From NCBI RefSeq assembly GCF_016026235.1, contig NZ_CP065613.1: DNA of 64,000 nucleotides. One strand, 5' to 3'. Below, piece by piece: positions 48,668 to 61,766 of the stretch. Source of the DNA: Escherichia coli. Lineage in GTDB: Bacteria; Pseudomonadota; Gammaproteobacteria; Enterobacterales; Enterobacteriaceae. The notes beneath the pieces are model-generated. The model did not search any database. It was not told the DNA's origin and worked only from the letters and a program-made list of their open reading frames with translations. The translations under genes and the position numbers were made by a program. Every line of letters starts with the position of its first letter. Position 1 is the stretch's first letter.

Positions 48668-49212
48668 TTATTTTAAGGAAAGCAACTGCTCTACGGTCAT
48701 GTTTTTAATTGCGCCCCGGTTTACAAGAGTCCAGCCCTGTTTTTCCAGATAAAACCGGAAAGTCTCCAGGGTACAGACCAGTGCGCCATCAGGAACGGTT
48801 TCGGTGAATTCGACATTGCCGAATTTGTCGAAGTGAACAACCAGAGTGCGACCATCACCCGGAATCATCTTGTCAGCAGGTGGGGTGTTATTCTGGCGCA
48901 GTTCGGCCTCCATGCGGTCGAACTCAGCAATGTAGGCTTCCTTGAATGTGGCGGCTTTTTTGCCCGTGAAGCCCATCACCAGGAAAACGAAGCCGTTTTT
49001 GGTGATTTGGTAGGCGTTATAAGAATTGCCGCGGTGTTCGAATTTAACCCGCGAAAAGTTGCTGGTTAAAAATAGTTCAGAACATTCGAGGGATTCTATT
49101 TTTTGAACAACATGGTGATGCTGCTTGCCAAAAAACTCAGCAATCGAAATAGAAGTAGTGACGGCGCGACCATTTTCGATGGTTACGTCAGGGTGAGAAA
49201 GGGTAGTAGCCA
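48668..49212 (-). CDS. Rha-family phage regulatory protein
   Basis: Start at MATTLSHPDV with gagga RBS; Phage_pRha-like block GRAVTTSISIAEFFGKQHHHVVQKIESL. Confidence 0.7.
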
Positions 49213-49914
49213 TAATGACATCCTCAAGTGATAAGTTAATTAACTCACCAGCAGAGGTGCTAATCTCATGGGTGGTGAGACGCACAGGGTTAGCACTACC
49301 GGTCACTCGAGAACCCGGCCAGCCTTGCGGCTGCCCCGCACGCCTCACCATAATTTGAATGTGGCTGTGCATTACGCATAAAAAAACCGCTTCAGCGCGG
49401 TTATGCGCTCGAGTAACTTTCGGGGTGCTAATCCCGGCACCCGTTTTATGAGGTGCAGGTGCACTATAATTCCACCCGTTCTGGTTTTCAATAGCTACAT
49501 TCAACATTTTCTCTTTCCTTTCATCACCGAAGTGAATTTTGTGATGCGGTGCCTGGTGCCTCCAGGTGACGTTAACCAGTTAACAATTACAGTCGGCTTT
49601 CCCACCCAAAACAATAAGGACTAACATGACTTTTAACTGTGCCGCGTGCGCTTAGCCGCATTCACCGCATCACAAAATTCACTTTAAAAAGGGCGGACAT
49701 CAGCCAGCAATTAAACCGATGCCGCCAACTGGTACTTCACACAGCAATGTCGTTATTTACAACCGGAAGCGCACTCCCACCATTTAAATTTCACAGACAA
49801 GACCGACTCTTTATGAATACCGGAAATGCGCCTTCGTGTTGTGCCCGGTTTTATTTCACCACCTCCGGGCTTTGGTGGTATCTTTACTGAAGTTCTCACA
49901 CAACCAGTAAGGAA

Positions 49915-50238
49915 ATGAATATGCCAACGTATCTCGCCAGAGTAGAACTATATAATGCTGAGCCAGAGGATTACGAAGGGCTTCATAAATATATGCTCTC
50001 ACTAGGATTCAGGAGAACGATCCCCCATGGAGATGGTTCGTATAATCAACTCCCGGACGGAACTTATGTTTCCGAAAAGGGCGGTGATATTTATCAAATT
50101 CGCAGCCAGATATCTGACTATGCAGACCGACTATCCGGGTATCGCGCGTCTGTTTTGTTTGCGAATTCAGTCAATGCGCATGGTATTTATACCCCGCCAA
50201 GACCCGGTGAATATCCTGCACGGCCTTCTGCTTTGTAG
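49915..50238 (+). CDS. hypothetical prophage protein (107 aa)
   Basis: aaggaa RBS 7 bp upstream of ATG; transcribed against the early-left operon; no TM segment. Confidence 0.5.
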   Translation: MNMPTYLARVELYNAEPEDYEGLHKYMLSLGFRRTIPHGDGSYNQLPDGTYVSEKGGDIYQIRSQISDYADRLSGYRASVLFANSVNAHGIYTPPRPGEYPARPSAL

Positions 50239-50390
50239 AAGGCTTCTTCGCTATCATAATCGCCAGATTCCAGCGCTTCTTTAGCCAGCCAGATGCGTGC
50301 CCCAGTGCCTGCATTTGGCTCCAGTTGCTGGAGGCGTTTTGCATCTTCTAGGAGTAGAGCGATAACGTGTTTTAATTCTGTCTCGTTCAT
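50187..50390 (-). CDS. YdaG-like small prophage protein
   Basis: MNETELKHVIALLLEDAKRLQQ; overlaps the 3' end of the 107-aa gene by about 50 bp. Confidence 0.45.
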   Translation of the reverse strand: MNETELKHVIALLLEDAKRLQQLEPNAGTGARIWLAKEALESGDYDSEEAFYKAEGRAGYSPGLGGV

Positions 50391-50391
50391 T

Positions 50392-50547
50392 TTACTCACC
50401 TGAATGTCTTCCCAACCAACGACGTGCGCCAGCTTCGGTTTTAAACGTTTTGCTTTTGGTATACGTCATGGCGGTGAATGTGCCGTCTTGATTGGGAAAC
50501 ACGCCACATACCAGAGATTCGTTGTTGCCAAGATCGATAGTATTCAT
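50392..50547 (-). CDS. YdaF-like small prophage protein (51 aa)
   Basis: MNTIDLGNNESLVCGVFPNQDGTFTAMTYTK...; immediately downstream of the repressor. Confidence 0.5.
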   Translation of the reverse strand: MNTIDLGNNESLVCGVFPNQDGTFTAMTYTKSKTFKTEAGARRWLGRHSGE

Positions 50548-50852: not shown

Positions 50853-51272
50853 TTATTCCGGTGGGGGATTATCTTTAATCCTGCCTCTCAAATATTTTTC
50901 TACATACTCATCGATTTCTTTTAGCCGGACTTCAAATAGCTCAATCATTCGTTGTTGTTCTGAGCCCGGTAGCTGGTTAAACAACTCAAGAAGTTTTCGT
51001 TGGGATTCATTTAACCACAATTCAGAAGATTCCTGTTCTCCAAAGAGGAGCTCAGGAGGAGATATGCCAAGTGCCTTTCCCAATACGACAGCGTCATGTA
51101 CTCCAACATTTCTGCTGCCCGCCTCATAGTTACCTATACGCGATTGCGTCCATCCGCAGATTTCAGCAAGTTTTCCTTGAGATAAACCAAGCTTCTGCCT
51201 GCGCTCTTTAAGACGCATTGCAATTTTGTCATTGAGCCTACTAGCGGCAATTTTTTCGTTTTCTTTTTCCAT
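50853..51272 (-). CDS. prophage repressor (XRE-family HTH, RacR/cI-like)
   Basis: HTH LGLSQGKLAEICGWTQSRIGNYE; divergent from a cro-like gene. Confidence 0.8.
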   Translation of the reverse strand: MEKENEKIAASRLNDKIAMRLKERRQKLGLSQGKLAEICGWTQSRIGNYEAGSRNVGVHDAVVLGKALGISPPELLFGEQESSELWLNESQRKLLELFNQLPGSEQQRMIELFEVRLKEIDEYVEKYLRGRIKDNPPPE

Positions 51273-51368: not shown

Positions 51369-51611
51369 ATGAACAAAATTTCAACATATCGAAAACAGCT
51401 TGGGCTGTCTCAAAGACAACTTGCTGTTCAGTTAGGGTGGATACAAAGCCGACTGGCAAATTACGAAGCAAATTTTCGTACCCCTGGACTAGAGGAGTGC
51501 AGAAAAATTGTTTCTACCCTTAATCGGCTTGGCGCTCATTGTGGACTTGACGATGTATTCCCCCCAGACGGTAAGCATAGCGAAAACAGCATAGGAGCGG
51601 TTGATTCATGA
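51369..51611 (+). CDS. Cro/HTH-type regulator (YdaS-like)
   Basis: 80 aa; HTH LGLSQRQLAVQLGWIQSRLANYE. Confidence 0.75.
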   Translation: MNKISTYRKQLGLSQRQLAVQLGWIQSRLANYEANFRTPGLEECRKIVSTLNRLGAHCGLDDVFPPDGKHSENSIGAVDS

Positions 51612-60417: not shown

Positions 60418-60443
60418 CTCAATCTGTTATCCGGGGCTATATT
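60414..60443 (+). promoter_or_regulatory. pR'-like late promoter
   Basis: TTGACT-18 bp-TATATT immediately after the Q-like stop. Confidence 0.5.
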
Positions 60444-60504
60444 CCTCACGCGCCAGCAAAATCTGGCGTCGGGATTGGCGTCCCGGATGTTTACGGAGCG
60501 ATAT

Positions 60505-60526
60505 GAGACGCGCCCGCGTCTTTTTT
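60505..60526 (+). terminator. tR'-like terminator
   Basis: gacgcgcccgcgtc hairpin plus T6, about 70 bp downstream of the promoter. Confidence 0.55.
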
Positions 60527-60689
60527 CATATCGTTTGCACAGTCTCATTCGCGATTTATGGCGGGCTGTGTGGGGGAGCCGAAAGGCTCGCCGGTTTCCG
60601 TACCCGGTTACGCCAACCCTGCACAGTTCGCCACCAGTTCGATTGGCGTCGTCGGTGGCGATAATTTCCAAATGTACGGAGTTATCGTT

Positions 60690-61455: not shown

Positions 61456-61532
61456 GGCCCTTTAGCTCAGTTGGTCAGAGCGAGCGACTCATAATCGCCA
61501 GGTCGCTGGTTCAAGTCCAGCAAGGGCCACCA
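61456..61532 (+). tRNA. tRNA with anticodon CAT (Ile2/Met type)
   Basis: Manual cloverleaf: GGCCCTT acceptor, loop CTCATAA, T-arm GCTGG/CCAGC, CCA end. Confidence 0.8.
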
Positions 61533-61533
61533 A

Positions 61534-61610
61534 CCACCACTAGCTCATCCGGATAGAGCATCAACCTTCTAAGTTGACGGTGCGAGGTTCGAGTCCTCGG
61601 TGGTGGGCCA
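61534..61610 (+). tRNA. tRNA-Arg (anticodon TCT)
   Basis: Manual cloverleaf: CCACCAC acceptor, loop CTTCTAA, T-arm CGAGG/CCTCG, CCA end. Confidence 0.8.
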
Positions 61611-61612
61611 GC

Positions 61613-61688
<76 letters not shown>

Positions 61689-61691
61689 TAT

Positions 61692-61766
<75 letters not shown>

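Follow-up and report, generated by a model that had tools for sequence, protein, structure and literature searches.

The window is a stretch of 64,000 nucleotides of Escherichia coli DNA (contig NZ_CP065613.1), and Table 1 collects the features of its prophage region. Upstream in the window are RalA, a marker of Rac, and two sRNA genes of the chromosome, McaS and FnrS. Since the repressor-like gene lies on the minus strand and the cro-like gene on the plus strand, the minus strand is that of the leftward early operon. Between the Rha-family ORF and a putative 107-aa ORF is a gap of 700 bp (49215–49914), which the first-pass annotation had described as non-coding with no convincing ORF. A convincing ORF is indeed lacking, but the gap is not empty. 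Minus-strand RNA genes pack it: a DicF/KilS-like sRNA, for which a terminator scan gives an intrinsic terminator (stem 49696–49723, followed by a T-run), a structured element bounded by an inverted repeat, isrK, and the C4 antisense RNA.

Table 1. Features of the prophage region and of the repeat-bounded element, with window coordinates.
Feature	Position	Strand	Remarks
Rha-family ORF	48668–49214	−	With isrK and C4, a P1 immI-like antirepressor module
C4 antisense RNA	49268–49355	−	78.6 bits, above gathering score
isrK	49380–49456	−	68.5 bits, above gathering score
Promoter-like TTGAAA-17-TATAGT	49463–49491	−	10/12 consensus matches; ends ~7 nt before isrK 5′ end
Shine-Dalgarno-like AAAGGAAAGAG and ATG (49507)	49505–49521	−	9 nt 3′ of stem
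STnc100-like element	49530–49684	−	Sub-threshold match at 49538–49679
Helix P1, 3′ arm	49530–49551	−	CACCGCAUCACAAAAUUCACUU; outer end is a mosaic junction
Core	49552–49662	−	111 nt; RNA order GGUGAAU junction, P2, P3, P4, P5
P5 hairpin CCUGG-AGGCA-CCAGG	49552–49566	−	
P4	49587–49594 with 49568–49575	−	Two internal mismatches in window
P3, 5′ strand	49633–49639	−	Pseudoknot with P4 loop 49576–49583
P2 hairpin	49643–49660	−	
Helix P1, 5′ arm	49663–49684	−	AAGUGAAUUUUGUGAUGCGGUG; 3 nt past U-tract of upstream sRNA terminator
DicF/KilS-like sRNA	49686–49780	−	DicF model 28.6 bits (sub-threshold) at 49691–49741; aligns with KilS and DicF
Repressor-like gene (cI/DicA-like)	50853–51272	−	Leftward early operon starts beside it
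cro-like gene	51369–51611	+	

In the RefSeq/PGAP record of the identical sequence, a 279-aa Rha-family CDS (48668–49507, minus strand) reads through isrK and C4. Translation of Rha more probably begins at the ATG at 49214 (MATTLSHPDV...), which is preceded by a GAGGA Shine-Dalgarno sequence. The gene call is thus corrected for a probable over-extension, and a gap that seemed empty becomes a dense array of RNA genes. The promoter-like site upstream of isrK is likely the own promoter of the downstream immI-like module. We considered a small ORF that starts from the ATG at 49507 and has the motif ENGWxYS in the window and in Citrobacter, and rejected it, as its sequence coincides with the promoter-like site and with the a1/b1 region targeted by C4. 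The conservation after this ATG is therefore better explained at the nucleotide level.

A second a1b1-isrK-C4 module is found at 60437–60638 on the plus strand (52.2, 75.6, and 77.6 bits), ~11 kb away and on the opposite strand, directly before four tRNA genes (61456–61763); the prophage therefore has two immI-like antisense control modules. The putative 107-aa ORF at the other edge of the gap (49915–50238, plus strand) is without annotation in the identical RefSeq record. It is convergent to the leftward operon, occupies the position of sieB in K-12 Rac or rac10 in Rac-SA53, and extends into the 3′ end of an ORF on the minus strand (50187–50399).

A repeat search of the window recovers the inverted repeat itself as two arms of 22 nt (49530–49551 and 49663–49684) that are 100% complementary and separated by a spacer of 111 nt, with coordinates and sequence exactly as the first-pass annotation had claimed. 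Beyond the two arms, the 22-mer is found nowhere in the 64-kb window with up to three mismatches permitted, and it is recovered in 0 of 100 shuffled controls. Folding of both strands, a check which had been suggested together with the repeat, gives a long stem on each (z-scores of −4.4 and −4.0), and the stem, hereafter helix P1, is present in the minimum free energy (MFE) and centroid folds of 181-, 243-, and 351-nt contexts.

The first-pass annotation had also made its reading depend on the presence of the repeat in close relatives, where the region proves to be widespread. Matches to 49500–49760 are found by blastn in 4641 of 5426 complete E. coli genomes, at a median of two places per genome and with an identity of ~79–89% for most matches; at most places in a spread sample, no annotated feature lies beneath the match. 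The exact window variant is rare (at least 99% identity in 2 records only), and a prophage at the Rac locus of E. coli O121 (NZ_CP119441.1) is identical (100%) across the 261-nt query.

In E. coli K-12 (NC_000913.3), the element aligns with two prophage spacers, the one between kilS (b4833) and kilR in Rac and the one between dicF and dicB in Qin, and is annotated in neither. The Qin arms are at 1649442–1649462 (5′) and 1649573–1649593, and the Rac arms are at 1418382–1418404 (5′) and 1418248–1418270. The placement is the same in the window, Qin, and Rac: the 5′ arm begins ~3 nt past the U-tract of an sRNA terminator, and the 3′ arm ends 8–25 nt before the next Shine-Dalgarno sequence. What follows the element differs, as the antirepressor module of the window (a1/b1, isrK, C4, Rha) takes the place of kilR or dicB. 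The sRNAs that precede it are related. K-12 KilS (NC_000913.3 1418405–1418502) scores 39.1 bits on the Rfam DicF model (gathering score 48), and its 3′ half aligns with DicF, which suggests that it is a DicF paralogue of Rac that has diverged. Alignment identifies the window sRNA at 49686–49780 as the positional homologue of this KilS (b4833).

The KilS-like sRNA has a further stem of ~13 bp around its 5′ end, formed on the minus strand by 49766–49778 with 49822–49835 (GAAGGCGCAUUUCC / GGGAGUGCGCUUC). The Qin counterpart of this stem, CGUGCGCUUCCGG, lies approximately at the site where the 190-nt form of DicF receives its 5′ end from RNase III, and an rnc-dependent site has been listed at 1418510, 8 nt upstream of K-12 KilS (Gordon 2017). 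Because of this stem and this site, the 5′ end of KilS may be made by RNase III and not by a promoter. A second copy of the repeat-bounded element upstream of Qin dicF was considered for the 5′ site of the 190-nt DicF and was rejected, as the sequence holds no such copy and a different hairpin occupies that position.

The arms of the repeat covary. In 17 long-stem relatives, which represent three or four independent lineages only, compensatory changes occur at 12 of the 22 P1 pairs and 96.8% of the alignment cells are paired; when the partner columns are slid by 1–3 positions, pairing drops to 31–38%. At least three long-stem lineages can be distinguished: the window/Qin/Rac type, a type with the unrelated arm sequence AACAGACCUUGCAAUGCAGUG, and a type from Citrobacter braakii that shows compensatory changes. 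Of the 17 sequences, 13 contain G-U pairs, which are consistent with the minus strand only. The computed duplex energies of the DicF strand and of the antisense strand differ accordingly (−28.3 versus −20.5 kcal/mol in Qin and −30.2 versus −22.9 kcal/mol in Rac), and as the G-U pairs stabilize the DicF-strand duplex over the antisense, the minus strand is the functional strand. Among the possibilities that the first-pass annotation had listed, that of a long RNA stem-loop or sRNA is therefore supported, both by arms that covary as an RNA helix and by a core that is related to the STnc100 sRNA family (see below). We conclude with high confidence that the repeat is the closing helix, P1, of a structured RNA on the minus strand.

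The only Rfam family that the element matches at an E-value of 1 or below, ribozymes and riboswitches included, is STnc100 (RF02076; 34.3 bits, E-value of 6.5e-5, model positions 21–154 of 206), with a score that does not reach the gathering score of 47. The helices of the STnc100 core are present in the window, and the 3′ hairpin motif CACCNGGAGGCACCNGGCACC is exact at 49549–49568. Published work describes STnc100 as a very abundant, Hfq-binding RNA that also goes by the name EcOnc27, is related to PasD, and has no established function; Hfq binding and a trans-acting seed are reported for EcOnc27 and PasD. A scan of viral and genome collections with the invariant hairpin CACCNGGAGGCACCNGGCAC yields 242 instances from Enterobacterales, and a single phage contig may hold as many as four. 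The family has up to nine places per E. coli genome. Common to the 242 instances is a plan that consists of a P1 ending in GGUG/CACC, an AAU junction, P2, a variable middle, and P5.

P1, P2, and P5 covary in an alignment of 71 sequences (P2 pairs, CG in 45–50 versus GC in 19–20; P5, GC in 66 versus UA in 5). In P2, full swaps of C-G to G-C pairs separate type 1 (CCCCC...GGGG) from type 2 (GCGGC...GCGC), and the window copy is of type 2. The RF02076 scores differ between the types: type-1 copies score 76–165 bits, and the scores are 34.4 bits for the K-12 Qin copy, 36 bits for the copy in L017, and 44.5 bits for that in L014. By these sequence criteria, type-1 copies are bona fide STnc100 and the window core is a divergent relative. 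Because their scores of 34–44.5 bits are sub-threshold, the type-2 copies (those of the window and K-12 Qin and others) are missed by annotation pipelines.

The middle of the element holds a pseudoknot between P3 and the loop of P4. With a custom per-sequence search, pairing of at least 6 bp is found in 127 of 152 copies versus ~39–50 of 152 in permuted and shuffled controls; MAFFT and RNAalifold, applied to the whole family, missed both P3 and P4, as this part of the element is too variable. In the window, the pseudoknot pairs CAGUUAA with UUAACUG. In the 17 long-stem sequences, P4 covaries at 5 of 8 pairs and P3 is invariant. The window P4 (49568–49594) combines a Rac-like 5′ strand, GACUGUAA, with a Qin-like 3′ strand, UUAACGUC, which indicates that the element itself is recombinant; its two mismatches may impair the core in this copy. 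At the 3′ arm, phage matches begin exactly at 49530, and this outer end of the arm is the limit of similarity to Rac-type phages. The conserved element seems to be a crossover point between prophage modules.

Some STnc100 copies are arrayed. Directly behind three tRNA genes in L028 (2361–3362), two strong copies and one weak copy stand in tandem; L080, L167, and L193 have three or four copies over a span of a few kb. Many arrayed copies have their own TTGAC-N17-TAAATT-like promoter and terminator, like sRNA morons. For the window copy, a scan gave no terminator-like site after the 3′ arm and no promoter-like site before the 5′ arm.

The length of P1 is bimodal. Among the 242 copies, P1 is 3–12 bp long in 230 and 21–22 bp long in 12, and no copy has 13–19 bp; with one defect permitted, ~25 instances reach 20–23 bp or more. 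All 22 distinct long-stem copies are of type 2, none of 147 type-1 copies has a long stem, and the long-stem copies all belong to the operon-embedded subtype. The long stem is thus selected as RNA and at a fixed length. RNase III takes a duplex of ~22 bp (PMC6212723), with which the conserved stem length of 21–22 bp agrees.

For the Qin homologue, RNase III has been implicated in published work. Two secondary sources that cite Faubladier 1990 (PMC5069750, PMC9438474) report that RNase III makes a 72-nt DicF, which extends 19 nt beyond the terminated 53-nt form. Counted from the annotated 3′ end of DicF (1649434), 19 nt lead to 1649453, which is within the Qin 5′ arm (1649442–1649462). From these published lengths, the cut would map roughly to the centre of the Qin stem, a placement that depends on the true end of the 53-nt form and on a 72-nt figure taken from secondary sources. 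An independent, weak indication comes from Table S1 of Gordon 2017: at position 1649470 of the dicF-dicB spacer, which is 8 nt inside the element, 26 reads are counted in the rnc deletion and 0 in each of two wild-type replicates; the signal is one of hundreds of comparable low-count sites and is of coarse resolution. Against processing at this stem, Ragunathan 2023 describes RNase III at no end other than the 5′ end of a 190-nt DicF. As regards Rac, the literature searched yielded nothing on the kilR leader with RNase III or Term-seq, and Barshishat 2018 contains no mapping of kilR transcripts. The window copy has both the duplex of a dicBF-type site (22 contiguous Watson-Crick pairs, about two helical turns) and its position (directly 3′ of a DicF-type terminator, with homology to the Qin spacer).

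On these grounds, we consider it probable that the repeat is an RNase III processing stalk on the minus strand and that it is cleaved. The helix, the strand on which it acts, its homology, and its covariation are observed here; RNase III cleavage comes from the literature on the Qin homologue, and from it we infer cleavage of this copy and its consequences. Most transcripts would end at the DicF/KilS-like terminator, and in the RNA that reads through it, the two arms would pair. RNase III would then cut both strands of P1 in the read-through transcripts. Three products can be envisaged: the read-through DicF-like RNA would acquire a slightly longer 3′ end, the core would be released with a residual stem of ~9–11 bp, and the early transcript would be parted from the downstream isrK-C4-Rha antirepressor module. 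A remnant of ~9–11 bp, as expected from a central staggered cut, would correspond to the upper part of the range of 3–12 bp seen in stand-alone copies. As the downstream module apparently has its own promoter, we count the benefit of cleavage in the window copy as doubtful.

The long stem could instead serve solely as a structural clamp, which would ensure that the core folds correctly inside a long operon transcript and would involve no nuclease site. The distribution of the stems fits this notion, since the long-stem copies are all operon-embedded and the stand-alone copies begin directly with a stem that is short, and the stem dominates each predicted fold. However, 8–10 bp suffice for other embedded type-2 copies, for example those that immediately precede DicF-like genes, and a clamp has no need of a sharp class at 21–22 bp with nothing at 13–19 bp; moreover, the sources cited above report an RNase III-dependent end of 72-nt DicF for the homologue. 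We regard the clamp as an unlikely explanation when taken by itself.

The predicted folds also bring the stem close to translation signals. When the 351-nt context is folded, the MFE structure pairs the terminator U-tract (49685–49695) with the GAAAGGA Shine-Dalgarno run of the ATG at 49507, which lengthens P1 by ~7 pairs past an internal loop (49486–49529 with 49685–49695), and the Qin MFE fold contains an analogous pairing of the U-tract with the dicB Shine-Dalgarno sequence, UUGAGGA. That the uncut structure also masks the next ribosome-binding site is a speculative extension of the processing stalk, which draws on these modelled folds. Taken as the principal role, with or without RNase III, the element would be a translational leader whose stem and outer extension hide the next ribosome-binding site (that of dicB, kilR, or the ATG at 49507). 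Each long-stem copy does end 8–25 nt before a Shine-Dalgarno sequence and a start codon, the outer helix of U-tract and Shine-Dalgarno sequence appears in the MFE folds of both the window and Qin, and Qin-type helices reach 28–30 pairs with one defect permitted. Yet the outer pairing is of a U-rich with a purine-rich segment, could be incidental, and is weak in Rac, and the window ORF at 49507 enters isrK and C4 and is probably no real gene. A leader function is compatible with processing by RNase III and does not exclude it; as the main explanation, we judge it improbable.

It is highly unlikely that the repeat acts as DNA, whether as a cruciform, an invertible segment, a recombination site, or an operator pair. 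A perfect repeat on both strands of the window and a mosaic junction at its edge might suggest such a role; the relatives, however, keep the complementarity and not the sequence, the G-U pairs and a bulge in their helices would leave a DNA duplex mispaired, and the enclosed 111 nt are a conserved structured RNA. Two of the options in the first-pass annotation are thus not supported: an independent lineage whose arms are wholly different and still complementary speaks against paired protein-binding sites, and the absence of an invertase or recombinase gene within 4 kb and the single syntenic position beside DicF-type sRNAs speak against an invertible or recombination site. A 155-bp MITE with 22-bp terminal inverted repeats, to which the element is similar in size, in its terminal repeats, and in the multi-copy nature of its family, can be dismissed almost entirely, given that no target-site duplication is present at the ends (TTTCATCACCG and TAAAAAGGGCG flank the element), that the 22-mer has no further copy in the 64 kb, that copies with the window-type arm are always at the same position after a DicF-type terminator, and that terminal repeats which differ between lineages around a conserved interior are the opposite of MITE behaviour.

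Two further candidates were tried and rejected. The put antiterminator of HK022 is a two-stem RNA of ~70 nt (PMC9378689); the core motif is absent from the HK022 genome with up to three mismatches, the HK022 immunity region has no STnc100 match, and the element is downstream of the terminator that a put-like antiterminator would have to suppress. An intrinsic terminator is not formed by the repeat, as the terminator scan gives 49696–49723 and 49385–49402 and none from the arms.

The repeat thus belongs to known kinds, a dicBF-type RNase III site and the STnc100 family. Apparently undescribed in the literature searched are the closing of an RNase III stem over an STnc100-like pseudoknotted core, the two unannotated copies in K-12, and the division of the family into two classes by stem length. 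If the processing stalk is accepted, it offers a structural account of the RNase III-made 72-nt DicF, in which the cut would fall on one strand of a helix whose partner is 110 nt downstream. In K-12, the spacers that precede dicB and kilR, both toxic genes, are shown to hold a relative of STnc100. STnc100 is among the most abundant bacterial sRNA families, and annotation based on Rfam misses these sub-threshold copies. More tentatively, and with appreciable doubt, we propose that the STnc100 core may be a modular functional RNA with a conserved pseudoknot that lambdoid prophages make by two routes, from stand-alone genes with a stem of 3–12 bp or from embedded copies whose stem of 21–22 bp is an RNase III excision signal. 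K-12 would then have two RNase III-released copies, with the cut coupling the maturation of DicF or KilS to the downstream toxic gene. The two classes of stem length provide a simple, testable rule for the maturation of such RNAs.

Processing of this type has precedents. In the precursors of 16S and 23S rRNA, the lambda N-leader, and sib, flanking sequences pair over about two turns and are cut by RNase III, and in the early-left transcripts of lambdoid phages, RNase III cuts alter the expression of neighbouring genes. The window element has no sequence relationship to the rRNA precursor and lambda sites, and the RNA that would be released here is not known to have a function.

With STnc100, PasD, and EcOnc27, the element shares the GGUGAAU junction, P2 with its UNNGC loop, the P3-P4 pseudoknot, a closing stem, the invariant hairpin CACC(G/U)GGAGGCACC(C/A)GGCACC, and a prophage habitat in Enterobacterales. 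It differs from STnc100 in its score (34.3 bits, below 47), in the swap of the G-C pairs of P2 for C-G, in the lack of its own promoter, 3′ tail, and terminator, in a stem of 22 versus 3–12 bp, and in being embedded and not stand-alone. KilS of K-12 Rac (b4833; Bar et al. 2021, PMC8175672) is the homologue of the neighbouring sRNA and not of the repeat itself; the Rac copy of the element is in the 5′ UTR of kilR, just after KilS.

The closest counterpart is the RNase III site of Qin dicBF. The two differ in their downstream cargo (the isrK-C4-Rha antirepressor module in the window versus dicB in Qin) and in their helices, that of Qin comprising 18 Watson-Crick and 3 G-U pairs and that of the window 22 Watson-Crick pairs without a defect; cleavage at Qin is reported by the secondary sources cited above, whereas in the window it would follow by homology. 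In both, a helix of 21–22 bp stands right after a DicF-type terminator in the leftward early operon of a Rac/Qin-type prophage, and the two 5′ arms are identical save for one base.
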